A stretch of DNA of 53,411 nucleotides from a virus. Below the pieces are notes generated by a model that was not told where the DNA came from, searched no databases, and saw nothing but the letters and a program-made list of their open reading frames with translations. Positions 8,823 to 53,411 of this stretch are shown here, in pieces; within the stretch, counting starts at the first letter, position 1, and every line of letters starts with the position of its first letter. Location of the stretch: positions 1 to 53,411 of IMG/VR virus record IMGVR_UViG_3300050821_013390. One strand, 5' to 3'. Position numbers and translations under genes: made by a program.

Positions 8823-9907
8823 GACACTCTCTTGAATTCGCCGCTAGCTTCAGCTGCCTCTATGTCCTCTGGTGTAGCATTAACCATATTAAATGGATTG
8901 CCATTTTTATCTACAAACTGTACCGTGCTCTTCTTTCCCATCTTAAATGATTCTATTAGCTCTTGTGCTTCTTTGGCTTCTTGAATTTGCGCTTCCAGTT
9001 CTAGCTTTTTGTCTTCTAATGCCTCTAATGCCGCTGTTTGTGACCAGGTAGCCCCAGGAATAGCAGCATTTATTTGCTGCTGTAGCTGCTTGTTTTGTCC
9101 TTTAGCTGGAAGTTTTTTAATTTCACTTACCAGAAGACCTTTTCTTAAAGCATTTAATGTTTGTTGATTCTCGGGATTATAGCGTTTAAACCCTATTGCA
9201 GGCTTATCTTTATAAAACTCTATCATTTTATTAACATTGGCTAACCCAATTTTTGCCTCTTTACCTATCTTTAAAGTTTCTTTAGCTCCATCAATCTCTT
9301 TCTTATTCAAATGAGCATTTTGAGCGCCCATCTCCTCGTGTCTTAATTTTCTATCCTCCTCTTGAGCTTTATGATGCCGTTCGGTTTCTATTCTGGATTC
9401 TGCTCTCTCAAGGCGAGCAGCTTCCTTTTCAGATTTACTTAAGTCACGCATTAAATCATGCTCTTCTCTGCTTAAGTTATGTTGTCTTATAGTTTCTCCT
9501 AAGCTGGCGTGTCTGTAAGCTCTATCTTCTTGGTCACGCGCTGCATGTCTTAATGACTCCATAATTTGTTGATTTAGGGCTAATCTCTCTTGCTCGCGCG
9601 CTTTTATAGTAGGCGCAAAATTAGCTAAACGATGGTCACTTGCCTGCGCAAATTCAGCGTTTTTACTACGAGTACCTAGATAATTTCCCAATACCCCTAA
9701 CATATCCATAAAGCCTGGCGTCACCGGCTTATGTCCCGGTCCTGCACCCATAGCCTGACGCACTTGATTAATAGCCTGCATGTCATAAGGACTGGAGCCT
9801 TGCGGCATCATGCCTTGTTGTGGAGGCGACATCATGCCGCGCATAGGTATGCCTGCTTGTTGTTGGGCTAATTGTCCCAAATATATTTGCTGTGCTAAAT
9901 CAACCAT
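8819..9907 (-). CDS. Virion-module coiled-coil protein
   Basis: ATGA-type overlap with the downstream gene. Q/M-rich N-terminus, charged helical centre. Confidence 0.6.
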   Translation of the reverse strand: MVDLAQQIYLGQLAQQQAGIPMRGMMSPPQQGMMPQGSSPYDMQAINQVRQAMGAGPGHKPVTPGFMDMLGVLGNYLGTRSKNAEFAQASDHRLANFAPTIKAREQERLALNQQIMESLRHAARDQEDRAYRHASLGETIRQHNLSREEHDLMRDLSKSEKEAARLERAESRIETERHHKAQEEDRKLRHEEMGAQNAHLNKKEIDGAKETLKIGKEAKIGLANVNKMIEFYKDKPAIGFKRYNPENQQTLNALRKGLLVSEIKKLPAKGQNKQLQQQINAAIPGATWSQTAALEALEDKKLELEAQIQEAKEAQELIESFKMGKKSTVQFVDKNGNPFNMVNATPEDIEAAEASGEFKRVS

Positions 9908-9920
9908 ATTTATACGCCTT

Positions 9921-10394
9921 TTACATGCTGGGCCCTAAGCATCTGTTGTTGATGAATTGCCAGCAATTATTTATAAAATATTTACATATCTCAAAAAAGG
10001 ATTTTTGCTTGGCTTTCTCTTTGTCTTCACTTGATATGCAATTAATTTTTAAGCTCATCATATTCTTTTTATAAGAAATTAAATCAAGCAAACTAGGCTC
10101 TAATAGTTTCATGTCGATGTTATATTTTAAAATATCAGAACAAAAAATGGTTAAACTTTCTATGTTATCTAATCTTAATAGTTGGTCTAAATTTTCAGGA
10201 GTAAGACATAACGATGGCAGCTCATAACAAGCGCGTCCATCTTCATAAATCATTAACACTTTAATATAAGAATTGGCATGCACAGCCTCGCATAGTTTGG
10301 CTACTTCATCACTTTTAATGTCATTTATTTCGAGACGCTCATTTTTGTATTCATCATTTGCTATAGCATCTAGTTTTTGCCGTGATAAGCCCAT
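9921..10394 (-). CDS. AT-rich orphan protein inserted in the virion operon
   Basis: Visibly lower GC than both neighbours. TAATG coupling to the upstream gene. No confident family. Confidence 0.55.
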   Translation of the reverse strand: MGLSRQKLDAIANDEYKNERLEINDIKSDEVAKLCEAVHANSYIKVLMIYEDGRACYELPSLCLTPENLDQLLRLDNIESLTIFCSDILKYNIDMKLLEPSLLDLISYKKNMMSLKINCISSEDKEKAKQKSFFEICKYFINNCWQFINNRCLGPSM

Positions 10395-12211
10395 TAATAT
10401 CCTCCGTAATATTGTTGTGAAACGGGTTGCCCCATTTGATTTCCATCATTTGGTTGTTGAAAACCTTGCTGGGCCAGCATGCGCTGCAGTGGTTGTCCAA
10501 CTTGATAGTCATTGGTTGGCGCATTCCCTTGTCCAAGCCGTTGAGCCATTAGGCGCAGCTGACCTGCGCCTAATGTGGGATTGCTGGCTGCATATGGATC
10601 ATCTTGAACTTGTTGGTATTGCTGGATTTGTTGCGCTTGTCTTTCTTCAGGGGAAACCTCAGGTGGATTAAGCGCATCACTTAACTGTCCTGCTAATTGA
10701 CTTGCCATGTTTCCCAATGCAGAACCAGCCATAGCTCCAGCGGGTCCTCCAAACACGCCACCAACTATAGGGCCTGCAATTCCACCAGCAGCCGATACAT
10801 CATTTAACATTGGATTTAACCATCCTTTTGCTGTATCACCCATAATATCGCCAAAGCTTTTATGTTGCTGAATTCCTTCTACCAAATTATTTATCCCTCC
10901 TACAAATGGGACATATTTCTTAATACCTCCCCATAAATCATCCCAGAAACTAAACTGTGGTAAGCCTGTTTGAGGATTAGTGCTACCGCCAAAATGTCTT
11001 TCTAAGAAAGCTAATTCTTCGGGATTAATATGCGCTAACACTGTATCTCCTGGCGCATGATGGGCGCGCACGTCTTCAGCTTCTTTATGTAGGCTTTTTA
11101 CACTTCCGCCTTTAGCAAATCCCCGCCCATGATGTGCATAGGGGTTGCTCATCCCTGCGGCGCCCCCTCCTATCCCTCCAAAAGCGGATGCCATGCTCAT
11201 AAACCGAGCCAATTCGTCTATAGTGCTTCTATTATTATTTTTATGGGTCGTAGTAGTTGTAGTATGACCTACAGGATGACCATGCATGATATCGCTCCAA
11301 AATTGCAACATCTTCATGGGCCACAATCTTTGCTCTTCGGCCCTCTGTTCATTATAAGAGCGATTTGACTCCTCTTCCATGCGCTCTCTATTATGAGCTG
11401 CACCCATGCTCTCTATCTCTTTTGCTTCCGCTTGTTGCTGGGCTATTGCGCTTTTACCTAACATCTCAGATGACATAATGTTGCGCATTAATTCTTCGTT
11501 ATAAAGTTTAGCACCCGATTCATAAGCTTGACCTAAGGCCAGTCTTTGTTGAGAACCTATTTCTCTCTCTACATCTCTTTGAGCACGTGCCATTAATTCC
11601 TTATGCGCAGCGCTTCCATGTTGTCCTGCACGTACAAATTTCTGCTCTAAAGCTGGCAGGATATCTTCTGTTAAGCGCAGCTTCCCCAGACGCGCTACCT
11701 CATCTGCAACAAATCGTGTATGCGGATTAATATAACGCTGCCGCTCTGCTTCGCCCAGTCCAACAAAACTTTTACCAGCCGCATCCCGCGCTAAATCTGT
11801 AGCTTTTTTATAAGTATCCCTATAGGGATAAATAGGACTAGTACCAACACTTTGAGCTAATCGTTGTTGACGCGTAAAGAATGATGGCACTTCTCCTCGT
11901 GCAAGCTGCCCAGGTATAAATGGACGGCTCGGACCTTGTTGTCCCGCAGGAACCTGAATCTCAGGTTGCTGAACTCGATAGGACTGCGCGGGCTGAAAAG
12001 GCGCCATATATTCTGCTGGTGTTCGTGCCGGTGGCTTATTTTGAGTTCGAGGAGCACCAGGAGGAGCGCCGGCTTCCGGTGGAGCAAATCCATACGGACC
12101 TTCTTGGAGGCCTTTTTCATATAATCCTCTGGCATCTTGTTGTAGTTTTTTTAGCATAGCAGCATGAGCTGCTTCATGTTCAAATTGTTGCTGTTGGCGG
12201 GCGTCTGACAT
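10394..12211 (-). CDS. Gly/Gln-rich internal virion protein (paralogue set A/B)
   Basis: Contains GDTVLAHINPEELAFLERHFGGSTNPQTGLPQF (shared with 13535..14935). A central helical core is homologous to 12289..13518. Also has a FAKGGSVK motif. Confidence 0.6.
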   Translation of the reverse strand: MSDARQQQQFEHEAAHAAMLKKLQQDARGLYEKGLQEGPYGFAPPEAGAPPGAPRTQNKPPARTPAEYMAPFQPAQSYRVQQPEIQVPAGQQGPSRPFIPGQLARGEVPSFFTRQQRLAQSVGTSPIYPYRDTYKKATDLARDAAGKSFVGLGEAERQRYINPHTRFVADEVARLGKLRLTEDILPALEQKFVRAGQHGSAAHKELMARAQRDVEREIGSQQRLALGQAYESGAKLYNEELMRNIMSSEMLGKSAIAQQQAEAKEIESMGAAHNRERMEEESNRSYNEQRAEEQRLWPMKMLQFWSDIMHGHPVGHTTTTTTHKNNNRSTIDELARFMSMASAFGGIGGGAAGMSNPYAHHGRGFAKGGSVKSLHKEAEDVRAHHAPGDTVLAHINPEELAFLERHFGGSTNPQTGLPQFSFWDDLWGGIKKYVPFVGGINNLVEGIQQHKSFGDIMGDTAKGWLNPMLNDVSAAGGIAGPIVGGVFGGPAGAMAGSALGNMASQLAGQLSDALNPPEVSPEERQAQQIQQYQQVQDDPYAASNPTLGAGQLRLMAQRLGQGNAPTNDYQVGQPLQRMLAQQGFQQPNDGNQMGQPVSQQYYGGY

Positions 12212-12288
12212 AGTAAGTTACTCTTTTAAATTAACCATATAAACTAGTTGTAATAGTTTAACATTTTTTCGCTACCGTAGCTCTACAA

Positions 12289-13518
12289 TTATCGCCTTCT
12301 TCTAGCTAGAAGCTGTTTTAAATGTTCCTGTTGTGCGGCTTGTTCCTTCGCATAACGTTCCCAATGTTGCCTCTGATATTCTGCCTGCACTGCGGCAGGA
12401 TTTAGCGGTCTGGCAGCTTCTTGCGCATATATGCCTCTTACGGCAGCCTCTGCTGCGTCAACCCTAGCATGAGCTGGATTAGGCTCTTCACGTCCATACG
12501 GTCTTGCAGGGGGTGGATTCTCATAATATGCACGTATACGTTCGCCGCCGCGTTCTGCCCAATCTCCCCATGCCCTTGCCATCCTTCCAATCACTGGATT
12601 TGGTATTCCCGCGGCTCTTTCTCTTCCTCTAACCTGTTCTTCCCGTGCCGCTTGTTCTCTTCTAACGGGCTCTTCTCTCTCTATTGCTTCCTCTTGCCCT
12701 CTAACAAATGCATCATATTGTTCTTGCTCAACATCAATTGGGGGAGTCTGTATTGGCTTAGCTGGCATCTTACCCTCTCTTATTGCATCAATCCCGTATT
12801 TAAGAGGTAACCCACGTACTATCCTGTTATATCTGTTCAATAAATCAAAAGGATAGCCTAGTATCTTCATCCCAGTTGCTATTAAATGTTCACGCGCTCC
12901 CTGCTCCTCCGCTCTTGCCAGGTTCGCACTCTTACTCAATGTTTCAATATCGTGTATATGCGCCTGTTGTTGACGTATACCACCTTTTCCTAACAATTCC
13001 GAGCCCAGGAGCTTCCGAATCTCATCTTGCTTAGATAGTTGAGCGGCTGAATCCCATCCTTGTGCCATTGCTAATTGTTTTTGTATTTCTATTTCTTTTT
13101 CTAAATCACGATTTAATTGTGCCGGTAAATTTTTATGGAAACTTTTGGGATGTGATGTATTAAATTTCTTATTCATTTCTTGAGCTATAGGTTCATGCGT
13201 CCGTCTCATAGAGCGCGCAAGTTCCTCGCCTACATGAGCTAAATAAGGCATCATGTAGGCATTCATATTCACCGGACCTGCAGCACGCTTCGCTAAATCA
13301 TTACTGGCTGCAAGTGATTGAACATATTTATAAGGAGAGCTTTCACCAGTTTGCGCCGCTAATTCTTGTGCTTTTCTAAATGATTCTCCAGGCGCTCCAC
13401 GTTCAGGGTATAAATCAGCAGGAAAAGGGGTTTTGGCTAACTTTTCAGCACGGGCACCTACATCAGTATATTCTTGTGACCACGGATTTATTCTCTGTAT
13501 TACATACTTTGTTGGCAT
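12289..13518 (-). CDS. Internal virion protein (paralogue of the 10394..12211 core)
   Basis: The segment DLAKRAAG...LGSELLGKGGIRQQQAHIHDIE parallels DLARDAAG...MSSEMLGKSAIAQQQAEAKEIE in the 605-aa protein. Confidence 0.6.
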   Translation of the reverse strand: MPTKYVIQRINPWSQEYTDVGARAEKLAKTPFPADLYPERGAPGESFRKAQELAAQTGESSPYKYVQSLAASNDLAKRAAGPVNMNAYMMPYLAHVGEELARSMRRTHEPIAQEMNKKFNTSHPKSFHKNLPAQLNRDLEKEIEIQKQLAMAQGWDSAAQLSKQDEIRKLLGSELLGKGGIRQQQAHIHDIETLSKSANLARAEEQGAREHLIATGMKILGYPFDLLNRYNRIVRGLPLKYGIDAIREGKMPAKPIQTPPIDVEQEQYDAFVRGQEEAIEREEPVRREQAAREEQVRGRERAAGIPNPVIGRMARAWGDWAERGGERIRAYYENPPPARPYGREEPNPAHARVDAAEAAVRGIYAQEAARPLNPAAVQAEYQRQHWERYAKEQAAQQEHLKQLLARRRR

Positions 13519-13534
13519 GCCAATTTTCTACCTT

Positions 13535-14935
13535 TTAAATCCTGCCAATATATGATGTAAGCGGCTTAGTCTTAGGCGGTAAAATTGACTTAACACCTTT
13601 ATGTGCCAACACATTTTTAAATGCCTTATCTAAAATTTTAGCCCCTTTTACATTATTGCCTCTTCCTAATGCATCTACCACCTTTTTATGTATTATACGT
13701 TCTCCATCCGATACTAAAGCATCAACTTTTTTAGTAGGTTCCCATTTACCTCGTTCACCCCTTATAAATGGTGAGCTACGTAAAACATTTTTCTCAAATT
13801 CTTCTAATTTTTTATCACCATTATTTGAATTGCCATCCCCTAATAAACTAACAATTGTTGCGTTAGCAACATATGAACCATGCGGTATTTTAACGGGACG
13901 GTCATCTGCCTGTCCGCCCGACTTGCCACACACATAACCGCCTGCTTTAAGGCGTTTCGCCCCACCCTGCATCTTGTTAATTTCTGCCATGATTTCTTCA
14001 CGCCTCTCAGGATGCTCACGTAACATTTTCATTAGCATTTCTAGTAATTGAGAATGAGAATAAGGAGAATTTAATTCATTTGTACCGTCGTCGCTTCCCA
14101 CGCCAGACATCGCGGTTTTGCCACCACCAAAATTAGCCACGGCATTGCGACCCGCACTACCTTGTGTCATACCGTGCGAAGTTACAGTAGAAGGTTCCCC
14201 GTGGAACTCATCCTCTTCACCATAACCTGCTCCCGGAGCAGCTCCTTTGCCGCCCCCGGGATAAATCTGACCAATCATTCCGGCAAGTTTAGTGAAGCTT
14301 GAGGGGTTCACACCTTTAACAGCTTCTTGCATAGCAACATCAGGAGCTAAAGTAGAGCGCATGCTATCAAAGAGAGGTTCACGCATACCAATGGTTTTGC
14401 CAAAAGTTCCATAAGGGTCAGCATTAAATAAGTGCGCTAATTCATTGGTGATTGTTGAAGATGCTATTCCCTTACCCGCACCACCCATAAAGGAACCCAT
14501 AGGTGACTGTTTTAGAATACTTCTATTACCCTGTAATGCATTGCCAGCAAGACCAGCTAAACCACCAGCTAATCCACTGGGCAATATAGTGCCAAATTTT
14601 GACATAAAGCTTGGCAACACACCTCCCAACCCAGCCCCTAAAGGACCTGCCAAGAAGGGCAATGCTGCTGCTACATAATTACCCAGACGAGGCTTGCGAT
14701 ATGTTCCCTCTGCTTGCATCTGTCTTTTTTGAGCATGTGACGGTTTACCAAGAGCCCTGCCAATAACATGAAGAAGACCACCCCTAAACTCAGGTAATCC
14801 CGTATGGGGATTAATACTTTGCTTTTGCCCCCCACGCAATAATTCCGCCTCTTCAGGATTGATATGAGCTAAGATTGTATCTCCACTGCGCCCCTTGCTA
14901 CGCAGTTGTTCAGCTATACTTGATAAGTCACGCAT
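13535..14935 (-). CDS. Gly-rich internal virion protein with AHINPEE...NPxTGLPEF motif
   Basis: GDTILAHINPEEAELLRGGQKQSINPHTGLPEF near the N-terminus. C-terminal internal duplication IPHGSYVANATIVSLLGDGNSNNG / VSDGERIIHKKVVDALGRGNNVKG. Confidence 0.6.
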   Translation of the reverse strand: MRDLSSIAEQLRSKGRSGDTILAHINPEEAELLRGGQKQSINPHTGLPEFRGGLLHVIGRALGKPSHAQKRQMQAEGTYRKPRLGNYVAAALPFLAGPLGAGLGGVLPSFMSKFGTILPSGLAGGLAGLAGNALQGNRSILKQSPMGSFMGGAGKGIASSTITNELAHLFNADPYGTFGKTIGMREPLFDSMRSTLAPDVAMQEAVKGVNPSSFTKLAGMIGQIYPGGGKGAAPGAGYGEEDEFHGEPSTVTSHGMTQGSAGRNAVANFGGGKTAMSGVGSDDGTNELNSPYSHSQLLEMLMKMLREHPERREEIMAEINKMQGGAKRLKAGGYVCGKSGGQADDRPVKIPHGSYVANATIVSLLGDGNSNNGDKKLEEFEKNVLRSSPFIRGERGKWEPTKKVDALVSDGERIIHKKVVDALGRGNNVKGAKILDKAFKNVLAHKGVKSILPPKTKPLTSYIGRI

Positions 14936-14945
14936 TTATATCCCC

Positions 14946-15716
14946 TTATTGCATGCCTCTGCGACCAAGCATCATGCTTGATTCATCAGATGGTTCAAAG
15001 TTGTGCATGTTATTGTTCATAGAATGAGACATTTGTGGCAAATATCTTTGTGCCATATTAGATGCAGTTTGCCCTGCTTGATATCCCATGGGTCCTTGAC
15101 CAAACATACTACCCATATTCTGCCCTAATTGGGGTAAATGTTGAGCCATTTGCCCTGCAAATCTACCCAACCCTTGGCCAGGATTTTGTTGATATTGATT
15201 CATCATGCCTTGACCCATATTAGCCATAGTGCTACCCATGCGGCCAATGTTGCGCCCCATATCTCCGGCACCAAACATTTCACCTACATTTTGTCCCAAG
15301 CCTGGCAAGTATTGCGCCATCTGCCCTGGTAATTGTTGAGCAAAGTGATTAAAACTAGGTGCTTGTTGGTATTGGTTATACATGTTTTGACTCATGTGCC
15401 CTAGTTGATTTGCTATATTTCCCGCATTGCCGCCCATATAACTACCTAATCCTTGTAGAGCAGGAGCCATATTTTGTGCAGCACCTTGCATTGCCCCCTG
15501 CCACCAAGGAGTGTTTTGTCCAGGCTTTAACGCGCCTCCTAAAATGCCTTGTCCTAAACCACCCAAAGATTGCCCTAACGCATTTCCTTTATCCCCACCA
15601 ATGAGACCACCAAGCATACCACCGAGACCAGGTAACGCTTGCGAAACCATTCCTCCTAAACCAGGTAGCGCTGATTTAGCCATGTTTAATAAACTACCCC
15701 AATCAAATCCAGCCAT
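14946..15716 (-). CDS. Low-complexity Gly/Gln/Met/Asn-rich virion-module protein
   Basis: Repeated PG(L/Q)G(G/Q)M / MNQYQQ / GQMAQ(Y/H)LP(G/Q)LGQN(V/M)G units. Tightly packed in the operon. Confidence 0.6.
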   Translation of the reverse strand: MAGFDWGSLLNMAKSALPGLGGMVSQALPGLGGMLGGLIGGDKGNALGQSLGGLGQGILGGALKPGQNTPWWQGAMQGAAQNMAPALQGLGSYMGGNAGNIANQLGHMSQNMYNQYQQAPSFNHFAQQLPGQMAQYLPGLGQNVGEMFGAGDMGRNIGRMGSTMANMGQGMMNQYQQNPGQGLGRFAGQMAQHLPQLGQNMGSMFGQGPMGYQAGQTASNMAQRYLPQMSHSMNNNMHNFEPSDESSMMLGRRGMQ

Positions 15717-15727
15717 AATAATCTCCC

Positions 15728-15955
15728 TTAAAAATTTAACATTGCTTGATATACCCCTTCTGCATAATCTTGAAAATTATCATAACCTACAGTAGAAGGT
15801 ACGCCATTAACCGTAAAACTATTTAATTGCGACAAAACATCGCCCCATAATCTCCAGTCTTTTTCATCTAACAATATTGGTATATTGTCATCCGGAAAAT
15901 CTATTATTAAGGAAGCCGCCCAATATGATAATGCAATATTTTTTGGTATAACCAT
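15728..15955 (-). CDS. Small hypothetical virion-module protein
   Basis: Start overlaps the upstream stop by one base at 15955. Same-strand operon. Confidence 0.55.
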   Translation of the reverse strand: MVIPKNIALSYWAASLIIDFPDDNIPILLDEKDWRLWGDVLSQLNSFTVNGVPSTVGYDNFQDYAEGVYQAMLNF

Positions 15956-17532
15956 TATTGGTGCCCATCCCCTAATCTAAATATTAATAAATTCTGTCCC
16001 ATCTGAAAGTCACCTCCTGTAGTGGTAGTGCCAAATTCAGGGGTTTCAAATTTTAATGTCATCTGTCGACGTTGTTGTCTGATGTCTAATTTCTCAGTAG
16101 TTGGTGTAATAGTAGCCTGGTAAATTGGTTCCGATGATACTGGTGATTGTGCGTAGTTCTTGCCATCTACTGTTAACGTCATATTCCCAGATAATAAGAA
16201 ATCTGGTTCTAATCTATAAAGTTCTACCTGCTTATCTATGCCACTCCAATTGCCATCAGGACCCGTGGCACAAAATGTAATATCTGGACTAGTAATAGAG
16301 CTGGGAATTACTGTTAATACATTATTTCTATTTTCATCTACTCCAATATCATGTATCCATACATCATATCCAAAGTCTACATTAGGGGCGTTGCCTGTCC
16401 AGATAGGGTCAGCGAATACTTCGCTAAAGTAACCGCTGCTGCGTTCTAGAGGGGTATCATACCAAGTCTTCTCTCGAACATTATAAACAATCGCCCAATT
16501 GCATTCATGTGTAGGATTAGGCGTGCTGGCTGTATCTTTAGTTGGGAAGGGCCACCAAATTTCACCATATTGCGTACTTTTAGTTCCCCATGTTTTTTGA
16601 GAATACGCATAATCAACATTATTAAAGAAGAAATTTAGATTTGTATCATTAGGTATCTCTTGTACAACACCCGTATATTGTAAAAATCTGTCGACAGAAA
16701 TCCAATAGAATATCCCATCATATTCAACAATAGTTTTTGGTGCGAAAACCGAAGACTCACTTGTGACAGTATCAAAAGTAAAGAGCACAGGTGGTGACGT
16801 AGTAAGCGTCACACGAATTACGCTATCTAAACTCCACAACAAACCGCCAGGACTACTATTGCCGGCCCTCACTTGGAATCCAGCTACTATTTTAGAGGAA
16901 GTAATGCGGGCACTACTTAAAACCGTACTAGGGTCATTCGCGGCACTCCATGCCACAAAGCCATTGTTGCCGAATATAAGTAAATAAGGATGTAGTGATA
17001 CCACGCCGCCACTTACATAATAATCGCCAGCTACTTGTCCGGGCGGAACATTGGTAAATGCCGGTATTAATGGGACTCCTGCATTTACAGGGCCAAAATA
17101 AACAGGTCTATTAATATCGTTCTCAATAGTGCTTAAATTAGGTGCTGCATGTGCTATCAAGCTATTACTTGTTGACGTATCATCATACAAATAATCAAAT
17201 GACCATATATTAAACGGACTTGTTGGAAATCCAAAAGGAGTGTAAATAACAGAAACAGCTCCAAGCGGATTGCCAAAAAAATCTATTTGTTGCGCATATA
17301 AATGAGATTCAGTGCCCATAAATATATTGAAATTAGGGGTATTGTTAACAACAATCATGCCATAAACAATTTCTTGTATAGTATCGCTAATTAGTTTGTA
17401 ACCACCAATCTTCCGCGGTAATCCCCGCTGAAATCTACACCATAAGCCATCGCTCCATCTGCGGGATGCAAACTTAGTCCCATCACGTTGGATGCCCGGC
17501 TGAGCATTTAAGGCTACTATTTTATCAGGCAT
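15955..17532 (-). CDS. Tail tubular/nozzle-type structural protein
   Basis: 525 aa, beta-rich. N-terminal GIQRDGTKFASRRWSDGLWCRFQRGLPRKIGGY motif of a kind seen in podovirus tail proteins (from memory, unverified). Position supports the call. Confidence 0.45.
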   Translation of the reverse strand: MPDKIVALNAQPGIQRDGTKFASRRWSDGLWCRFQRGLPRKIGGYKLISDTIQEIVYGMIVVNNTPNFNIFMGTESHLYAQQIDFFGNPLGAVSVIYTPFGFPTSPFNIWSFDYLYDDTSTSNSLIAHAAPNLSTIENDINRPVYFGPVNAGVPLIPAFTNVPPGQVAGDYYVSGGVVSLHPYLLIFGNNGFVAWSAANDPSTVLSSARITSSKIVAGFQVRAGNSSPGGLLWSLDSVIRVTLTTSPPVLFTFDTVTSESSVFAPKTIVEYDGIFYWISVDRFLQYTGVVQEIPNDTNLNFFFNNVDYAYSQKTWGTKSTQYGEIWWPFPTKDTASTPNPTHECNWAIVYNVREKTWYDTPLERSSGYFSEVFADPIWTGNAPNVDFGYDVWIHDIGVDENRNNVLTVIPSSITSPDITFCATGPDGNWSGIDKQVELYRLEPDFLLSGNMTLTVDGKNYAQSPVSSEPIYQATITPTTEKLDIRQQRRQMTLKFETPEFGTTTTGGDFQMGQNLLIFRLGDGHQ

Positions 17533-24559: not shown

Positions 24560-25459
24560 TTAAGCGGCTTGCACGCCGAAGCTGCAACGGAAGTTAGAGA
24601 AACCGAAAGAATATCTTTCGACTGCTTTCGCCATTAAATTATCAGTAGAGAAATCGGTGTAAACATCGGTTTCCAATGCTTCTCTGATGTAATGCTTAAA
24701 TCCATCTGGCGCATCAGTGGTTAAGAACCAATTGCCATTGTTATTTAAGTACACATTAACCCGTGCGCCTTCTGGTATCGCGCTATTGTTGTAAATAGCA
24801 TTGATATCGTTGTTAGCAGTTTGAGTTCTAAATGCACTACCTAATATACGAGTTGCTTGCCATTCATTCTTTGGCGAAACAATTAGTTTAAGAGGTTTAA
24901 CAGCGATGGTAAGTCCTGCAATGTCTTTGAACACACGAATTTGTGTAATAGCTTGCTCTATACCTGCTTCAGTTAAATCTACTAAACCAGGTAAAGTGTT
25001 AGGAACAATACCTGTATCGATAGGATGGGTTAAGCTGTATAGAGGCTGTCCATCACCACCAATAGAGGTTGTAAAACCGTTGTTTAAAACAGCTGCGCCT
25101 AAAATTTCTTTAGCAATAGACATCGAGCGTTTTAATGCTTTAGCCGTTTGTGGAAATTGTGTTTTATACAAATTATCCATGATGGCCTGTCTAGTTATGA
25201 TAAAACTTAAGGCCAGGTACCGATGGTGGTAGACCGTCCTGTAACGTTCAGCCATAGTGTCAACCGCAGTAGGCGCGCCTTCATCTCTGAATTGTGCGAC
25301 TCCTAGGAACCTCATTTCGGTTTCAATTTCGTCCGCTTTATCTGATTCATAAGTATCAAAAATTTCAGACCACTGAGATGGGTATAAGTCGTAGTTACCA
25401 AAGCATGCAGCTAAGCCGGGGCGAAGCTCTGATGCGATGGCCGATGTATTTATAGGCAT
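24560..25459 (-). CDS. Major capsid protein (HK97-fold type)
   Basis: 299 aa. The N-terminal pattern SELRPGL...F..Y.S.KA.E.E..MRFLGVAQFRDEGAP...YHHRYLALSF resembles podovirus major capsid proteins. Lies downstream of a strong promoter/leader. Confidence 0.7.
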   Translation of the reverse strand: MPINTSAIASELRPGLAACFGNYDLYPSQWSEIFDTYESDKADEIETEMRFLGVAQFRDEGAPTAVDTMAERYRTVYHHRYLALSFIITRQAIMDNLYKTQFPQTAKALKRSMSIAKEILGAAVLNNGFTTSIGGDGQPLYSLTHPIDTGIVPNTLPGLVDLTEAGIEQAITQIRVFKDIAGLTIAVKPLKLIVSPKNEWQATRILGSAFRTQTANNDINAIYNNSAIPEGARVNVYLNNNGNWFLTTDAPDGFKHYIREALETDVYTDFSTDNLMAKAVERYSFGFSNFRCSFGVQAA

Positions 25460-25493: not shown

Positions 25494-26759
25494 TTAAACG
25501 GGTATCGTTAAATACGACACAGAGGCCGTAATCCAGTTGCCCGTATCACTGCCCGCGTTAGCAAATGAAGCCCCTACAGTATTTAGCGCTAAAAATGTAT
25601 GTTTAGAGGTAATTAAAGCACCTGGCGACGTGGGTGTTGGGAGTAATGGAATATAAACAGAACCAGTTCCCGGCACCGTAGCTGTTGGTGTAATAGAGGT
25701 AATCAAAGTAGGTGAAGCTGTTGCACTCGCAACCCCTACATTATTAGTACCATCATAGTAATTAAGCAGTATTCCAGACCCTGCTGTGAATGGCTCGCCA
25801 CCTGCGGTTACAGGTATATTGAAAGTTAAAACCACGCTTATAGGAATAAAAATGGTAGTAGTGCTGGATTGAGGTGTTAATTCAAGGCCACCACCGGCAG
25901 CATTGGTCATGGCTATAAATTGTGCTTTAGTTATATTAGTAACGGTAGTTGTATATGTGTAATTTTGCGATATACCGCTCTTGTAAACACTATTATTTAA
26001 AGTAACTAATACATTGTTAAATGCACCTTGCAGTCCATTGCCATATCCAACTCCAGTAGTAGTCGTGTAAGCATGGGTGCCATTTTGTACACCAGGAGTA
26101 AATTGCTTAATCTTAAACTGAGAAGTTTGATTGCCACTAATAGTTGAAATATCTAAATATTCAGCTGATACGTGGCTAGCTCTTGCATTCCCATTAGCAG
26201 GATTTTGAAGATAAGTCTGTCCGGTAGGAAGGGTTACTATGCCATTAACCGCATCGGTAAATGTTCCTCCAATACCTAAGTCGGCATTTAAACCAATTTG
26301 TGCTTGGGTAATGCCTAGTGGTACTGTCGATGAAACAACATTGCCAGAGAAAGAAGCTTGTACATTAAACAATGCATTTGGATCGTCCATAACCAGGCAA
26401 AAAATTGAGGTCGAATTACCATTAGCTACAAATGTTAAGGTGTTATTTAATAAATAAGGAGAATAAATTGGGTTGCCAAGTACATCCTTATAATAACATC
26501 CTTGGAAAACACCTACGCCTGGTTCGCCAGGATTAGCCGGATATAAATAACTAGACCCAGGATTTGCGTCTTGAGAGGTTCCTAAGCGAACATAATCACC
26601 TTGATAAATACCGGTGAATGCTGCGTTAAGTGGTGCGTAGTTTAAAGGAGGCAGTACTTCGTAGGTGCTAAGTTGCCCTGATTCGGTACGTCCTGCGATG
26701 GTGCCCCATAGTTGAAAGCCTTGAGGCGAATTGACACTGCTAGTGCTAATGTTTGACAT
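25494..26759 (-). CDS. Abundant-looking beta-rich head protein (decoration or alternative capsid component)
   Basis: First gene after the long leader. The ATG at 26757-26759 with a GGGGA SD is preferred to the track's TTG at 26789. Thr/Ser/Asn/Gly-rich. Confidence 0.6.
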   Translation of the reverse strand: MSNISTSSVNSPQGFQLWGTIAGRTESGQLSTYEVLPPLNYAPLNAAFTGIYQGDYVRLGTSQDANPGSSYLYPANPGEPGVGVFQGCYYKDVLGNPIYSPYLLNNTLTFVANGNSTSIFCLVMDDPNALFNVQASFSGNVVSSTVPLGITQAQIGLNADLGIGGTFTDAVNGIVTLPTGQTYLQNPANGNARASHVSAEYLDISTISGNQTSQFKIKQFTPGVQNGTHAYTTTTGVGYGNGLQGAFNNVLVTLNNSVYKSGISQNYTYTTTVTNITKAQFIAMTNAAGGGLELTPQSSTTTIFIPISVVLTFNIPVTAGGEPFTAGSGILLNYYDGTNNVGVASATASPTLITSITPTATVPGTGSVYIPLLPTPTSPGALITSKHTFLALNTVGASFANAGSDTGNWITASVSYLTIPV

Positions 26760-27101
26760 TAATATCCCCGTTAAATCTGTTTTTAACAAACCGTTTTTGG
26801 CTTGCCTAAATTTGACTAATTTTTATAGTCATCAGATATAACGAGGACTTGCACCTCTCACTCTCTCTGCGTCAGACAAGAGTGAATCACCGTTCCGCTA
26901 AAACTTATCAAATTTTAGCCCTCCCATGGAAATATGTCTTTGCCATGGAGACCTCCCTTTTTAAAGTTGTGGGTAGTCCGCAACTGTCCATATAATAAGA
27001 AGCTATTATACCCCTTATTATTTTAAATCTCTACACTATTTTATCATTCAATATAATCTATTTGCAAGGGGAGGCGTAAAACAGTCGCCCTTACAGCTAT
27101 T
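26760..27101 (-). promoter_or_regulatory. Capsid-operon promoter(s) and a structured leader of about 270 nt
   Basis: Minus strand: TTGCAA (27062-27067)-N18-TAAAAT (27038-27043), and TAGAGA-N17-TATAAT (27005-27010). Downstream is an imperfect hairpin CTCCATGG...CCATGGGAG and a purine-rich tract. Confidence 0.5.
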
Positions 27102-33209: not shown

Positions 33210-34820
33210 ATGAATAACAACTTAAACGCGTATTTACTAGAATTCTTAGGCAAATATCCTGAGATAGTTAAAGAACAAAGGCAAGAAAAGGCTTATGAGA
33301 CCTCGTTTTATGAGTTCGCAAAAGCTGCATGGCCTAATATTGATTCCAGTACCTTCCAGGATGCTTGGCATGCTCGCGCCATATGCGAGCATTTAGAGGC
33401 TGTAGTTAGGGGTCTAATACCAAAGTTAATCATTAATGTACCTCCTCGTACTGGCAAGTCCGCCCTTATATCAATCATGTTCCCAGCCTGGGTATGGATT
33501 ACTCAGCCTAAAATGAAGTTCCTGTACGGCTCTCACGCTTATAGCCTCGCTCTAGACCATTCACGGCGTTGCCGCCTACTAATAGAGAGTGACTGGTATC
33601 AAAAACGCTGGGGAAGCATATTTAAGCTTTCAGCTGACCAGTCCACCAAACACTTCTTCACCAATGACAAGCATGGGCACAGACTGGCTACGAGCGTTGG
33701 GGGAGGGGTTACTGGCTTTGGAGCTAACATATTAATAGGCGACGATTTAAATGACCTAAGCGATGGGTATTCTTCCACGGCTCGTGACCGAGCTAATGAC
33801 TGGGTAAGTCGCGTATGGTCTTCCCGTACCAATCCTGGTCAATTCAGTGCCCATATAATAGTGCAGCAAAGGGTAGCGTGTTCTGATGTAACGGGTTACC
33901 TATTAGATAAAGACGAGAAAAAAGAATGGGTGAAGCTAATCTTGCCCATGGAATTTGAAACAGCTAGACGCGCTAAAACCATTATCCTACCCTCTACCTA
34001 TCCCAATACATGGGAAGACCCTAGAAAGAGAGAGGCAGAGCTCCTGTGGCCCGCAGGAATAGATAGATTAAAAGTCCAAACATTTAAAGGGGACTTAGGA
34101 GATTATAACTACGCAGGACAACATCAACAAAGACCCAGTCCTGAAGCTGGAGGTATTATTCAAAAGAGTTGGTACCAATGGTGGAAGCAACCAGCACCCC
34201 CCAAGTTATTGCAAACTGTTCAAAGCTGGGATACAGCCTTAGAGGCTAAAGATGAGAATTGTTATTCAGCTTGCACAACATGGGGGTTATTCGAGGACGA
34301 TAAGAAGGCAACTAATATAATCTTGTTAAATATGTGGCGAGGTAAGGTTGAGTTCCCAGTGCTAAGAAAAATGGCTAAGCGTCTATATGAGGACTATAGA
34401 GACGACGGTAGCATTGCAATAAAGCCCGATAATAAGCATGTTCCCACCTTTGTGCTGGTAGAAGCCAAGGCATCAGGTAGCTCCTTAATACATGAGCTCC
34501 AAAGCGCGGGCATTCCGGCCTATGGGTTTGACCCAGGAAGGTTTGGCGAGAAGATTCAAAGGGTAAGGCTAGTTACTCACATGATTGAAGGGGGAAGGGT
34601 CTGGGTGCCAGCTTATCCCCCTGAATATGTGAGACTCCGGAACTTTGCCGATATCTTTGTTAATGAGACCTCCCTATTCCCCAAGAGTGATAGCCGGGAC
34701 TTAGTTGACACGATGACCCAAGTTTTATTAAGATTGAATACTTCGGGGCTTATAAAACACCCTGATGCAAAGGACATGGAAGATACAGGAACCGTATTGA
34801 GTGATGCTCTGTACTGGTAA
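33210..34820 (+). CDS. terL: Terminase large subunit
   Basis: Walker [17 protein letters not shown] Walker B-like motif, and a C-terminal nuclease-type region (VLVEAKASG...DSRDLVDT). Confidence 0.9.
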
Positions 34821-34848
34821 TTGGACAAAGACAATAAGGAACGTTCTA

Positions 34849-35067
34849 ATGCTTATCCTCACAAGGAAAATTGGCGATGCCATAATGATTGGCGATGATA
34901 TATCTATAGTTGTGCTAAATGTTATGGCTGAAAACAGGGTGACATTTGGTATAAAAGCACCAAAAGATGTAGATATTTATAGACAAGAGATATATAATTC
35001 AGCTAAAAGAAAGCCCAAGCTGGATAAAGATATAGAAAAGGAGAGTGAGGTTTTTTATAATTCTTAG
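34849..35067 (+). CDS. csrA: CsrA/RsmA-family RNA-binding translational regulator
   Basis: [49 protein letters not shown] aligns along its length with E. coli CsrA. ATG at 34849 with AAGGAA SD. The track's earlier start at 34801 overlaps terL. Confidence 0.9.
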
Positions 35068-35072
35068 GAACA

Positions 35073-35309
35073 ATGATGGCGAAAGAGTTTGACACAGGCA
35101 ATTGGCATATAAAAGATGCTGATAAGGCCGATTTCAAATACTATACGCGATCTGTTCTGGAAGAAGAAGATGATAATGGCTTACGTACAATACTGGGGCT
35201 TACAGATGAGGAATGGAAAAATCGTGGCATCAAACCCGAGATAGTAAAAGCATTATGGAGAAATAGACCCCTCGTTTGCTCTTTTGGCACACATGAAGAA
35301 AAGGAATAA
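35073..35309 (+). CDS. Hypothetical acidic protein
   Basis: AGGA SD. Lies between csrA and ssb. Confidence 0.6.
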   Translation: MMAKEFDTGNWHIKDADKADFKYYTRSVLEEEDDNGLRTILGLTDEEWKNRGIKPEIVKALWRNRPLVCSFGTHEEKE

Positions 35310-35314
35310 AAATA

Positions 35315-35782
35315 ATGGCAAGTGTTAATAAAGTAATTCTAATTGGAAATCTAGGTAAAGAGCCTGAATGCAAGTGTATGCCCAGCGGAACCCAGGTTAC
35401 CAAGTTCAGTCTGGCTACTAATGAGAAGTGGAAAGATAAGAAGACTGGCGAGATGCAAACAAAAACTGAATGGCATAATATAGTTATGTATAATAAGTTG
35501 GCTGAGAGAGCAGCCTTTTTAAAAAAAGGTATGTCTGTTTATATTGAAGGCTCTATCAGCACGAATAAATGGAAGGACAAGGATGGTCAGGATAAAACCA
35601 CAACTAATATAGCAGCTAGCGCTATGCAGATATTAAGCGGAATGGAAGAAATAAAAAGACAACTCGAGGATATGGGCGGAGGAATAAAAAACTTCCCCGG
35701 TGAATTAACTCTCAAAAATATACCCGAGCATAAAGCACAGACTACGTTGGGATTCTTTGCTGATGACGATTTACCTTTTTAA
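35315..35782 (+). CDS. ssb: Single-stranded DNA-binding protein
   Basis: The OB-fold N-terminus VNKVILIGNLGKEPE...TEWHNIVMY and the acidic tail DDDLPF are canonical SSB features. Confidence 0.95.
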   Translation: MASVNKVILIGNLGKEPECKCMPSGTQVTKFSLATNEKWKDKKTGEMQTKTEWHNIVMYNKLAERAAFLKKGMSVYIEGSISTNKWKDKDGQDKTTTNIAASAMQILSGMEEIKRQLEDMGGGIKNFPGELTLKNIPEHKAQTTLGFFADDDLPF

Positions 35783-35796: not shown

Positions 35797-36807
35797 ATGA
35801 GTGATAGCGACAATATGCGCGCAGATTCGCGCGGCACCTCCCAATCGGGCACATATTTGTCATTACGAACAGGTTTGGCTGCCCTTGCTAGCGGAGCATC
35901 CCATGCTTTCGTCACCCCTTCTATTGATAGGGCACGTGCATCACGTCAGCTTTTTGCTGAGACGGCAGGCCCTGCGCCTGCGCCAGCAGTAGAGGAATCT
36001 CTAACAGGATTGGACGCAGCGTTAACACCCTCTCCAGGCATGGTGCCCCCGCTATCCTATAGGCGCATAATGGATGATACTCGCGCTAATTTGCTGGCTA
36101 CCCAAAATCTCCTAGCTGAAAGAGGATTAGATTTAGCAGCAGCAAGAACACGTATAGCCACACTGGAAAATGCGCTTGACCAACGACGCGCTAGAGAGGA
36201 AGCGGAAGTCGCCGCCCGTGAAGCGCAGACAAAATTAGATGCAGAAAGAGCCCGTGAAGAGGCAGCCAAACATGCTGAGCGCTTACTTGCTGAATATCAA
36301 GCTAGGCAAGAGCAGATAAGGTTAATAGAAAAAACAGCAATAGAAAAAGCTCGTTTAGTTGCAGAACAACATGCTAGAGAATTAGCAGAACATGCTGCTC
36401 GTGTAACAGCTGAGCAACAACAGGTTAGAGAAGCGGCAACAAGAGCTGAGATAGATAGGGAGGCGCGTGAAGCTGCGGCAACGGCAGCTACAGAGAGAGC
36501 TCGCCAAGAAGCAGTAAGAACAGCTGAGGTAGCCAGAGAAGCAGCAGAAAGACAGGCGCGAGAAGCAGCAGAACAAGCGGCCCGTTTAGCTGCTGAGCAA
36601 CAACGTGCTAGGGAAGCTGCGGAGAGAGCGGAAAAAGCAACCAAGGAGGCGGCGGATATTCGTCAGCAATTACTGGAAGCTCGAGAACAAGCACAAAGGG
36701 GCGCAGCAGAAGCTCTCGCAAGAGAGGCAGCAAGAGCGCGCATTCCAACTCCACCGCCAGTAGCACAGCCACCAACAGATACACAAAGAGCTCGTTTTTT
36801 ATTGTAA
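35797..36807 (+). CDS. Ala/Glu/Arg-rich long-helix protein (compositional outlier)
   Basis: About 200 aa of REAAERQAREAAEQAARLAAEQQRAREAAERAE-type repeats. Locally much more GC-rich than its neighbours. Confidence 0.7.
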   Translation: MSDSDNMRADSRGTSQSGTYLSLRTGLAALASGASHAFVTPSIDRARASRQLFAETAGPAPAPAVEESLTGLDAALTPSPGMVPPLSYRRIMDDTRANLLATQNLLAERGLDLAAARTRIATLENALDQRRAREEAEVAAREAQTKLDAERAREEAAKHAERLLAEYQARQEQIRLIEKTAIEKARLVAEQHARELAEHAARVTAEQQQVREAATRAEIDREAREAAATAATERARQEAVRTAEVAREAAERQAREAAEQAARLAAEQQRAREAAERAEKATKEAADIRQQLLEAREQAQRGAAEALAREAARARIPTPPPVAQPPTDTQRARFLL

Positions 36808-37527
36808 CTATAACGATATATTATAAATTATCCCCAACCCACAGGTTAGGCTGTTCTTTGCTTGGATATGTCGATGGGGGTTGGTTTTAGAATATGCCCG
36901 TAAACGATGGGGTCGCCAATAATTATTAAAGACCTCTCTTACCGTAGCCTCCACGCTAAAATCTTTAACATTGTATCCCATTCCAATTTTTATTACCGGT
37001 AATATCTTGGTATTCTGGAAAATAGAACTAATATCAACCATTGTTGTATTATATTGATAAATAAAGGCGTGTGCTTTTACTCGAGAAATACTAAGACCCA
37101 ATCCCCCTAGAGCATAGCAATTACCAAAATTATTAATCTTTATCAATACCATTAATGGTATATGTGACTGTCGCATCTTAGTGCGCATCCTAACAACATG
37201 TCCGGCTGGTATAGGATTGCTTCCGGCTACCATTTCTTCAGACCCAATAGATGCATTATATTTTTGACAGAAATAATTCTCGTATCCTGCTTCAATCCCA
37301 AAATGACGCGAAAACATAAATCCCGCGCTAACACCTACGCCTTTTGTATTCTTATGGAATAAGTTTTTTCCGTAATTGTTTTCCCATTGCGTATGATTAG
37401 ATAAGGCTGATACCCCCAGTCTAATGGTCTTAGGATGGGCATATACTATCTTAAATGAACCATGTTTTTCGGCATAGGAAATGCTGGCAAATATTAATAA
37501 TATGCTACTTAAGATTAATACTTTCAT
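36808..37527 (-). CDS. Outer-membrane beta-barrel protein (OmpA-N/Ail-Lom-like moron)
   Basis: Signal peptide MKVLILSSILLIFASISYA|E (start 37525-37527). Alternating amphipathic strands GVSAGFMFSRHFGIEAGYENY, YALGGLGLSISRV, VIKIGMGYNV, LTCGLGIIYNI. Confidence 0.65.
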   Translation of the reverse strand: MKVLILSSILLIFASISYAEKHGSFKIVYAHPKTIRLGVSALSNHTQWENNYGKNLFHKNTKGVGVSAGFMFSRHFGIEAGYENYFCQKYNASIGSEEMVAGSNPIPAGHVVRMRTKMRQSHIPLMVLIKINNFGNCYALGGLGLSISRVKAHAFIYQYNTTMVDISSIFQNTKILPVIKIGMGYNVKDFSVEATVREVFNNYWRPHRLRAYSKTNPHRHIQAKNSLTCGLGIIYNISL

Positions 37528-37550
37528 TATTTTATTTGCCCTTCTGTCAT

Positions 37551-37712
37551 TTATGGAGCCCATTTATAGGGTTCACCCATGCCGGGGCCCATCGAGAACG
37601 GTCTCCATACGCCACCCTTATACACGCAAATCGCCACCGTCCCATCAGCAGGGATCCAAAGCTTTTCCTGTTGTTCAACAGTCATGTGGGGGATATTTAT
37701 TTTTTCAGTCAT
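37551..37712 (-). CDS. Small early protein (53 aa), possible 4th member of the Y-x-x-G-x-W family
   Basis: Not in the ORF track. ATG at 37710-37712, 3 nt upstream of the preceding gene's stop codon (8-nt overlap). MTEK... N-terminus like its neighbours. AICVYKGGVWRPF motif. Confidence 0.45.
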   Translation of the reverse strand: MTEKINIPHMTVEQQEKLWIPADGTVAICVYKGGVWRPFSMGPGMGEPYKWAP

Positions 37713-41332: not shown

Positions 41333-41569
41333 TTACCCCTTCTTGTCCAACTCATTCGCTAACACTTTAACCCTACCCACAATTTCCTTAGAACTTTCCT
41401 CAAGCTCCTTAAGTTTTCCCTTATTATAGAGCCAGGGATTATCCTTAACGCTATAGAACACTGGCTTACGCGCACCACCATGCAAGTCATCCGCTAACCA
41501 TCTAATCATCTTGATAGCCTCAGACTGCTCTATCTTTTCTTTTAAGTCAGAGAATGCCTTATATGTCAT
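41333..41569 (-). CDS. Early hypothetical protein
   Basis: Packed operon. Confidence 0.55.
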   Translation of the reverse strand: MTYKAFSDLKEKIEQSEAIKMIRWLADDLHGGARKPVFYSVKDNPWLYNKGKLKELEESSKEIVGRVKVLANELDKKG

Positions 41570-41984
41570 GCTCTTTCTCTAGCCATTCCGGCAACTTATT
41601 TAAACGAAAGATAATCATATCTAATTCATCCCGCATCCTGCCAATCTGGCCCTCAAGCTTCTCCGCTCTATCCTGCATTCTCATTATTTCAACTATAGCT
41701 CTACTTAGGCATATATCCTTAATTTCTTGCGGAATCGCAGCGTTTTTCTTGACTTTCTTCTTAAACAAGCTTCCGGTCATTCCTAAACTTACTTTATGAT
41801 TAGCTAAAGTTTTCTTAATATCGCTCACTTGCTTCTTACCCATATTAACCATCTTCAACAAATCCTTCTCGGTTTTTTGCACCAAATCTCCAATAACATT
41901 AATCCCATCATGCTTTAAGGCATTGGTAGCCCGCGTGGAAAGTTTTAAATCCTCTACTGGTAAATCTAAAAGCCCTTTATACAT
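41559..41984 (-). CDS. RNA polymerase alpha-subunit C-terminal-domain (alpha-CTD) homologue fused to a coiled coil
   Basis: LPVEDLKLSTRATNALKHDGINVIGDLVQKTEKDLLKMVNMGKKQVSDIKKTLANHKVSLGM aligns without gaps to E. coli RpoA 255-316. Strong AAGGAG SD. Confidence 0.8.
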   Translation of the reverse strand: MYKGLLDLPVEDLKLSTRATNALKHDGINVIGDLVQKTEKDLLKMVNMGKKQVSDIKKTLANHKVSLGMTGSLFKKKVKKNAAIPQEIKDICLSRAIVEIMRMQDRAEKLEGQIGRMRDELDMIIFRLNKLPEWLEKEHDI

Positions 41985-50359: not shown

Positions 50360-50559
50360 GTAGTCGATATATTGACTTGGTTTAGATAGAATGTATTCAC
50401 TGGAGGTTGTCTGTAATAAAAAGCAGATAATCTCCATGGAGTACGAATAATCCTTGTCCCCACCCCTCCTGCATGTAATAATAAATACTCAATCTCCACT
50501 CGATGTAACTCATGACATCGAGTCTTAGCTCAACAACTCATAACTGTTGGGCTCTTTTT
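50360..50559 (+). ncRNA. Candidate structured small RNA of about 200 nt (family unknown)
   Basis: Three hairpins: 50401-50436 (13 bp, two G-U pairs), 50498-50523 (9 bp perfect) and 50527-50553 followed by a T5 run. The G-U pairs would be C-A mismatches on the other strand. No plus-strand ORF. Confidence 0.45.
50527..50559 (+). terminator. Rho-independent terminator (rightward)
   Basis: AGCTCAACA-actcataac-TGTTGGGCT (one G-U pair) then CTTTTT. Confidence 0.6.
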
Positions 50560-53140: not shown

Positions 53141-53411
53141 TGAATTTAAGAAAGCTAGAGCTAAAGGTCTAGGCGGCAGTGATATCGGGGCCATATTTGA
53201 CTGTCCTACCGCATATAAATCGGCATATGAGCTCTATATGGAAAAGGTATATGGAACAGAGAGGGATATATCCACTGAGCAGCCTGTCATATGGGGTAAT
53301 CTATTAGAAGAGCCTATAGCACAACACTATTCTCAAGTGACTGGAAAAGAGTTAATTAATCCAGGCAATAGCGCTATACTTGATTACCAGCCTTATCCAT
53401 TTCTATTAGCT
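53133..53411 (+). CDS. YqaJ/lambda-Exo-type exonuclease, N-terminal part (continues at window start)
   Basis: ATG at 53133 with AAGGAA SD. MSDEFKKARAKGLGGSDIGAIFD...WGNLLEEPIAQHY. Open to the window end and in frame with 24..716 via the 98-nt overlap. Confidence 0.85.
   Translation, partial: MSDEFKKARAKGLGGSDIGAIFDCPTAYKSAYELYMEKVYGTERDISTEQPVIWGNLLEEPIAQHYSQVTGKELINPGNSAILDYQPYPFLLA
53314..53411. repeat. Terminal direct repeat, copy 2 (identical to 1..98)
   Basis: Exact 98-nt identity with the window start. Confidence 0.95.

Follow-up and report, generated by a model that had tools for sequence, protein, structure and literature searches.

A CsrA/RsmA-family gene beside the large terminase gene of a novel tailed phage

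The csrA locus

The viral record IMGVR_UViG_3300050821_013390 (positions 1 to 53,411; this whole stretch of 53,411 nucleotides is referred to as the window in the following) carries, immediately downstream of its large terminase gene (terL), a short gene whose product resembles the bacterial RNA-binding proteins CsrA and RsmA. This gene, here called csrA, had been picked out in a first-pass annotation made from the DNA letters alone, which described a 72-aa open reading frame (ORF) with its own Shine–Dalgarno (SD) sequence, located between terL and ssb. The ORF, its translation and its SD were all recovered in the present analysis, and the gene is indeed phage-borne and part of a tightly packed plus-strand block together with terL and ssb. 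It directly follows terL, but a further small gene, orf78, separates it from ssb (Table 1). A longer, GTG-initiated reading (34801) is unsupported: it overlaps the 3′ end of terL, and all homologues begin with MLILTR. For comparison, two diverged relatives of the window were available in public assemblies, namely L001 and the short contig L002.

Table 1. Position of csrA, of its sequence features and of the neighbouring genes of the plus-strand block in the window
Feature	Position	Strand	Remarks
csrA homologue, coding sequence	34849..35067	+	ATG at 34849; TAG stop ending at 35067; 72 aa + stop
SD AAGGA	34836..34840	+	8 nt before the csrA ATG; within a (C/U)AAGGAA element
C-terminal tail of CsrA, residues 51–72	34999..35064	+	Basic patch KRKPK, then acidic stretch to FYNS
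terL (large terminase)	33210..34820	+	PHROG 38, E 3e-81; 28-nt gap to csrA; 88% identical in L001, where csrA is also the next gene
orf78 (78 aa, function unassigned)	35073..35309	+	No family match; window-specific insertion between csrA and ssb
ssb	35315..35782	+	Pfam SSB, 115.5 bits; directly after csrA in L001 and L002
orf336 (336 aa, Ala/Glu/Arg-rich)	35797..36807	+	ORF; last plus-strand gene of the block; 334-aa counterpart after ssb in L001

Family membership and predicted structure

The profile check that had been suggested for the putative CsrA homologue gave a clear outcome. Its 72-aa product scores 74.9 bits against the Pfam CsrA profile PF02599 (cutoff 27; E 4.8e-21), covering profile positions 1–51 of 53, and passes the NCBIfam CsrA equivalog models PRK01712 (80.1 bits, cutoff 73) and TIGR00202 (70.8 bits, cutoff 70.1). 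Against PRK00568 it scores just 34 bits versus a cutoff of 106, and by this pattern of NCBIfam results it is classed as a CsrA of the gammaproteobacterial type. The protein also matches PHROG 9500, annotated as 'CsrA-like regulator', at E 8.1e-20 (positions 1–59 of 65), and phmmer retrieved CsrA, RsmA and RsmE chains of the PDB at E ~4e-13. In BLASTP, residues 1–50 align with E. coli CsrA at 25/50 identical positions and 78% positives (E 8e-20). The end-to-end alignment with the E. coli protein that had been claimed initially stands for this part, with one extra residue in the β3–β4 turn, but does not include the 22-residue C-terminal tail, which has no counterpart there. A further difference is the replacement of H43 of chromosomal CsrA by Tyr.

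An alignment of 12 sequences, which comprised phage relatives, reference CsrAs and homologues from databases, has L2, L4, R6, A37-P38-K39, R45, E47, I48 and Y49 as invariant positions. The LILTR strand and the Arg of the xxRxEIY segment (Arg45, equivalent to R44 of E. coli), both of which the first-pass annotation had singled out, are thus present and invariant, and the phage protein also keeps K7, V41 and I43. Alanine scanning of E. coli CsrA, reportedly by Mercante et al. in 2006, is said to have identified residues 2–7 and 40–47 as critical for RNA binding, with R44 foremost among them. Both RNA-binding subdomains, β1 (residues 2–7, LILTR[RK]) and β5 (residues 40–47 with the Arg), are intact in the phage protein, and an intertwined homodimer is predicted from the retention of these two strands, which also form the dimer. 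Judging from these scores and residues, we regard the ORF as a genuine gene of the CsrA/RsmA family.

An AlphaFold2 model of the monomer reached a mean pLDDT of 66.5, a moderate value that is expected because the model represents a single chain of an intertwined dimer. It contains strands at residues 11–14, 18–26 and 30–36 and a helix at 45–53, and is of low confidence in the tail region. When the model was compared with the PDB by Foldseek, the top 12 matches were all CsrA, RsmA or RsmE structures, and nothing else was significant; ranks 1–11 had a probability of 1.00 and target-normalised TM scores of 0.62–0.77, and rank 12 (1y00) had a probability of 0.90 and a TM score of 0.45. The predicted fold agrees with that of the CsrA family, which consists of five β strands and a C-terminal helix.

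The phage genome, the csrA clade and selection on csrA

The window begins and ends with exactly the same 98 nt (1..98 and 53314..53411), and an ORF for a RecE/YqaJ-like exonuclease spans the junction of the two ends, which together indicate a complete genome of ~53.3 kb that is circularly permuted or terminally redundant. Recognisable phage genes encode TerL, a Mu gpT-like head protein, a tail fibre, RecE, RecT, a replication initiator and SSB; for the portal there is a Pfam signal below threshold (SU10_portal, 19.9 bits, cutoff 30), in addition to relatives of 39–49% identity on related viral contigs. Most of the other ORFs have no family match. No near match to the window at the DNA level was found in 50,697 phage records, among which the closest TerL, that of the Roseobacter phages CRP-901 and CRP-902, is 40% identical. 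The window is a tailed phage, and a very novel one. In agreement with the earlier remark that lysogeny genes are not visible, scans with PHROGs and Pfam detected no integrase among the ORFs of at least 250 aa; the only candidates that emerged were Xre-type and MarR-type helix-turn-helix proteins, in view of which any assignment of a lifestyle would be tentative.

The order terL-csrA-ssb is kept in L001 and L002, and the TerL of L001, at the protein identity given in Table 1, is ~80% identical to that of the window at the nucleotide level. In contigs with less similar TerL proteins (46–48% identity; L006–L010) no csrA occurs within the up to 6 kb of flank examined to either side of terL, and the csrA-ssb arrangement therefore belongs to a narrow clade; terL and the portal gene are on the same strand in these relatives. 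An exhaustive HMMER search of 1.84 billion representatives returned 11,777 CsrA clusters, among which the clade's own cluster alone exceeds 63% identity. Likewise, no member of the clade beyond L001, L002 and near-identical copies was found in IMG/VR, 185,579 species genomes and JGI metagenomes. According to these searches the csrA clade, which consists of the window, L001 and L002, is small and rare.

Within the clade, the dN/dS of the csrA core is 0.098 between the window and L001 and 0.14 between L001 and L002, at a dS of ~0.9–1.2; between the window and L002 synonymous sites are saturated (pS 0.77), so that no dS can be computed. The dN/dS of terL is 0.05, and the constraint on csrA is close to that on this packaging gene. 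A ratio of ~0.1 implies that purifying selection maintains the protein in the phage lineage and that csrA is not a decaying passenger.

Gene neighbourhood and expression

The five genes from terL to orf336 (33210–36807) form a compact island on the plus strand, with gaps of 5–28 nt; the minus strand carries the structural genes (~5.3–33.0 kb) and the small early-type genes (36.8–52.4 kb). The gap between terL and csrA contains no terminator-like site, which makes co-transcription of the two genes plausible. A promoter-like hexamer pair is located inside the 3′ end of terL (34705–34734) and might conceivably act as a csrA promoter; promoter-like matches in the region are no commoner than in shuffled sequences. 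A PADLOC scan of csrA and its neighbours yielded nothing relevant.

The 78-aa protein encoded directly downstream of csrA had been put forward as a FliW-like partner. This idea had to be given up: the orf78 product has no match in Pfam (FliW included), NCBIfam, PHROGs or PADLOC, it is roughly half as long as FliW (about 140–150 aa), and its model is small, mostly helical and of low confidence. Moreover, orf78 is missing from L001 and L002, where csrA abuts ssb, and alignment of the window DNA with both relatives delimits a clean insertion of ~240 bp that carries it. The gene is a lineage-specific insertion and not a conserved partner. Its first letters are the ATGATGGC that also marks the ssb start in L002, as though insertion had taken place just past the initiation codons of ssb and had recreated the ssb start further downstream.

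At the end of the block, orf336 has no family match in Pfam or PADLOC. Its product consists mostly of Ala/Glu/Arg/Gln coiled-coil-like repeats, and its position is kept in L001 at ~38% identity. The minus-strand gene 36808..37563 converges on the csrA block and encodes a product of 251 aa, the N-terminus of which resembles a signal peptide and which has weak matches, below threshold, to an outer membrane protein (OMP) β-barrel and to OmpA-like proteins; in L001 it is 74% identical over the part compared.

Comparison with known CsrA systems

Phage-borne CsrA proteins are a known category. Alleles of csrA were reported from 30 of 2517 phage genomes, the list including Pseudomonas F116-like, Vibrio, Burkholderia, Erwinia and Klebsiella phages and the coliphage PTXU04, and it was argued that CsrA proteins matter to the fitness of mobile elements (Sobrero and Valverde, 2020; PMC7366521). 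Numerous cases came from a search of GenBank and IMG/VR with a phage-CsrA HMM, in which csrA of phages was seen to correlate with csrA of their hosts (Campa et al., 2021; PMC8450108). As RsmA represses cas mRNAs, the phage copies were proposed to suppress CRISPR-Cas and to manipulate their hosts (PMC8450108). In PTXU04, a lytic, plaque-forming coliphage, knockdown of the csrA homologue by dCas13d (CRISPRi-ART) resulted in smaller plaques, and its authors described this experiment as the first to test CsrA within the life cycle of a phage (Adler et al., 2025; PMC11879866). In our own tblastn search, homologues of the window protein were present in 86 phage records, all of them <60% identical and at most 55% over the aligned part. 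The first-pass annotation had considered a csrA copy next to a terminase gene in such a phage unusual; in view of these reports, of the 86 records and of a dedicated PHROG family, this assessment cannot be upheld, and the window gene adds a new example to an existing category.

Like the catalogued phage proteins (PHROG 9500; 'RsmM' of F116-like phages, the Vibrio and Burkholderia DC1/Bcep22 proteins, and gp28 of PTXU04), the window protein is the product of a CsrA-family gene of a tailed phage. In contrast to them, it falls into a small clade of its own, and its gene is located between terL and ssb. The F116 protein differs additionally by its length of 123 aa and a different C-terminal extension. 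In the three records that were inspected, F116, Providencia PSTCR8lys and Vibrio 431E45.1, the neighbours of csrA are small early genes, and in F116 and PSTCR8lys it is within ~2 kb of the cI repressor gene. The placement beside terL is thus atypical among the phages sampled (n = 3), and this modest peculiarity is a difference of placement and not of kind.

With the chromosomal proteins E. coli CsrA, P. aeruginosa RsmA and P. fluorescens RsmE, the window protein has in common a single small domain, the RNA-binding residues and the predicted fold. It is set apart from them by its phage origin, the extra turn residue, the Tyr in place of H43 and the 22-residue tail, and no CsrB/RsmZ-like RNA was found in the window phage. 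RsmQ of plasmid pQBR103 and the CsrA of Sinorhizobium pMBA19a are mobile-element homologues as well and are described as able to engage the host Csr/Rsm network, with RsmQ taking over host translational control (PMC9928087; PMC7366521). These two proteins are encoded on plasmids that persist in the cell, whereas any effect of the window csrA would be confined to the infection cycle, because it belongs to a phage in which no integrase was detected. CsrT of the Legionella integrative and conjugative elements is, according to brief accounts in other studies (PMC7366521; PMC8450108), another extra csrA-like gene product of a mobile element; unlike the window gene, it is tied to conjugation/type IV secretion modules, and no such module is present in the window.

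Proposed function of the phage CsrA

We propose that csrA encodes a functional phage CsrA that shifts host translation through binding to GGA motifs, and assign to this reading a probability of roughly 0.55. According to this proposal, the protein would be produced during infection from the plus-strand block terL-csrA-(orf78)-ssb-orf336 and form an intertwined homodimer, which would bind GGA in RNA via the surfaces of β1 (LILTR) and β5 (V-x-I-x-R-x-E-I). The phage copy would add to the CsrA pool of the host and out-titrate the host's sponge small RNAs (sRNAs). As a result, the translation of GGA-bearing host mRNAs, which might include those of stationary-phase, storage, biofilm and motility genes and possibly of defence genes, would shift to favour phage production. 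Arguments for it are the profile scores, the retained RNA-binding residues, the low dN/dS, the kept gene order and the setting in a phage genome; precedents are the plaque-size effect in PTXU04, the take-over of translation by RsmQ and the proposed suppression of CRISPR-Cas by phage copies.

Several points weigh against this proposal. The placement in the terL/ssb region differs from that in F116, PSTCR8lys and 431E45.1, and the protein could have a phage-directed role instead. The tail and the one-residue loop insertion could change the specificity of the protein. Furthermore, the proposal presupposes a Csr system in the host, and searches aimed at the host gave no lead: a search with TerL against the GTDB species-representative genomes found no relative, and no prophage relative, at the sensitivity used, and the searches with an RNA polymerase α-CTD protein and an AmpG-like permease of the phage (see below) against 5.8 billion proteins were uninformative on the host.

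The phylogeny of CsrA, from which a host clue had been expected, did not provide one. In a clade-specific peptide scan of the 185,579 GTDB species genomes, the nearest cellular CsrAs are 45–61% identical and come from several gammaproteobacterial families, with Pasteurellaceae, Francisellaceae, Pseudomonas, insect symbionts and others represented. Only one of the closest single-domain CsrA clusters bears an organism name, that of a Syntrophomonadaceae metagenome-assembled genome (MAG; 56% identity), and this gives no host signal. A Gram-negative host would fit the OMP-like β-barrel protein and the AmpG-like permease encoded by the phage, and a Gram-negative gammaproteobacterium is our weak guess.

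Possible targets among the phage's own messages

The best-surviving rival explanation, which we nevertheless consider unlikely, is that the phage CsrA chiefly regulates phage mRNAs, timing packaging, structural and replication functions and repressing its own synthesis at the GGA of its SD. The location of csrA in the terL/ssb block and not in an early or moron region would fit such a role, as would the composition of its leader. The (C/U)AAGGAA element around the SD is kept in all three relatives (3/3; window, L001 and L002) and is close to the ACARGGA core of high-affinity CsrA sites, a second GGA is found 7–27 nt upstream, and the 110 nt before the start contain 4–6 GGA. E. coli CsrA autoregulates its synthesis via sites that overlap the SD. 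As the SD element of the phage gene resembles a CsrA site, autoregulation through this predicted site is possible by analogy. However, a GGA is expected at any SD, and with 11 of 87 gene starts having at least five GGA in the same upstream interval, the csrA leader ranks in the upper 13% and is unexceptional.

The genome as a whole does not favour phage messages as targets either, although phage leaders had been suggested for this in the first-pass annotation. Motifs that follow the CsrA-site consensus occur at chance level: the Pseudomonas-type core CANGGANG was counted 21 times versus 17.9 ± 4.3 in shuffled sequences, and the SELEX-type 12-mer RUACARGGAUGU (RTACARGGATGT), with up to two mismatches allowed, 17 times versus an expected 13.3 ± 3.9. 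The one leader that had been named explicitly, that of the supposed capsid gene (26760–27030, minus strand), does contain the three GGA strings quoted for it, but three GGA in ~270 nt are close to the background of this strand (2.3 per 150 nt). It may also precede another structural gene, because the major head protein is more likely encoded by 24560..25459 (Mu gpT-like, PF10124).

Some features of this part of the minus strand are worth recording. The intergenic region 26790..27101 contains, at 26930..26965, the strong SD AAGGGAGG followed by the 11-codon mini-ORF MAKTYFHGRAKI. Inside the neighbouring coding region 25494..26789, which encodes a 421/431-aa product, the near-consensus CsrA-type sites TTCCAAGGATGT and TTATAAGGATGT are located 14 nt apart (26482..26507). 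Their spacing would suit one CsrA dimer, and they may be due to chance.

A sponge RNA encoded by the phage was considered as well and rejected as unsupported. No Rfam family, including CsrB, RsmY and RsmZ, reached its gathering score in a scan of the window. The densest non-coding GGA cluster on the plus strand (46791–46940) is an unstructured site (fold z −0.27 versus shuffles) that overlaps an intrinsic terminator of the minus strand. The second candidate, 50360..50559 on the minus strand, contains several GGA and has no Rfam match, and it folds only slightly better than shuffled sequences (z −1.77). The latter segment is part of a ~600-nt, apparently non-coding stretch downstream of the replication initiator gene, in which no clear iterons were seen.

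The C-terminal tail and the remaining alternatives

A rather improbable alternative to the proposed action on host messages is that the phage protein serves as an antagonist or decoy, which would form inactive heterodimers with host CsrA, or would use its tail to soak up a protein partner or the sponge sRNAs of the host and so alter how active host CsrA itself is. Because CsrA proteins exist obligately as intertwined dimers, heterodimers would be plausible. The acidic tail ending in FYNS is distinctive, and the C-terminal region is where other CsrAs are bound by the protein antagonist FliW (PMC13443453) and by CesT, whose complex with CsrA (5z38) is among the Foldseek matches of the model. The RNA-binding residues, however, are kept under strong purifying selection, which would be needless in a pure dominant-negative protein. 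In addition, the tail is missing in L001 and hence dispensable in the clade, and no partner gene is conserved beside csrA.

The tail, another modest peculiarity, is common to the window and L002 (ESENFYNS). Among ~170 CsrA homologues from genomes and metagenomes, a similar ending was found solely in L089 (DDEEMSYNL), and that of L044 (SELIVNS) bears a faint resemblance to it. The L089 homologue stems from a Francisellaceae MAG (CAIVQA010000013.1), in which positions 7246..16193 form a mobile-element-like island with a 72-aa CsrA paralogue beside a sigma-70-family factor. The same island also encodes an OMP, a metacaspase, a zeta toxin, an HD-domain protein, a PDDEXK nuclease and a RecT that is 45% identical to the RecT of the window. 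The likeness of the tails could be a hint of a docking motif or of the host group, and is far too thin for either to be claimed.

A more speculative scenario, to which we give little credence, is that the CsrA of this clade moved to a packaging/replication operon and gained the tail as a docking motif for a protein of the host or of the phage, comparable to the binding of FliW and CesT, and so became a partner-controlled switch. If this were the case, a tail-docked CsrA would act when packaging begins, as a switch of translation in the phage or the host, and would not simply provide an extra dose of CsrA.

Least credible of all is that csrA is a passenger gene recently taken from a host and without a role in the phage: repeated acquisition of phage CsrAs from bacteria is apparent (PMC8450108, citing PMC7366521) and the contigs with 46–48% identical TerL proteins have no csrA in the flanks examined, but the low dN/dS at nearly saturated synonymous sites and the conserved gene order largely refute this explanation, and as no cellular CsrA above 61% identity turned up in the 185,579 species genomes at the scan's sensitivity, any acquisition was not recent.

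If the phage CsrA acts on host translation as proposed above, it would belong to a recognised, almost untested route by which phages could enter the global post-transcriptional network of their hosts, and for which one knockdown phenotype has been published. The window csrA opens no new category and is not easy to study without an identified host. It is a well-conserved, clearly selected copy in a lineage almost devoid of recognisable genes, and a reasonable candidate for learning which RNAs phage CsrAs act on, be it host mRNAs, transcripts of host defence genes or messages of the phage.

Other genes of the phage

Among the small early-type genes, 41559..41984 (minus strand) encodes a free-standing protein of 141 aa, of which the first 60 residues correspond to an RNA polymerase α-CTD (PF03118, 71.3 bits). 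The search against 5.8 billion proteins returned near-identical copies of this protein and one rpoA fragment of 45% identity, and nothing more. As a mimic of the α-CTD it could disturb host transcription that depends on UP elements or activators, and compared with csrA it is perhaps the more unusual find. The AmpG-like permease is encoded by 2847..4055 (plus strand); this 402-aa MFS protein (PF07690, 81.6 bits) is of the same type as the AmpG/PAT muropeptide transporters and is an odd gene for a phage to carry. Among named proteins, the closest reach no more than 28% identity; a relative of 78% identity is present on another metagenomic contig. Adjoining the tail-fibre gene, 4946..5320 (minus strand) encodes a nuclease with a VRR-NUC domain (PF08774, 28.3 bits).

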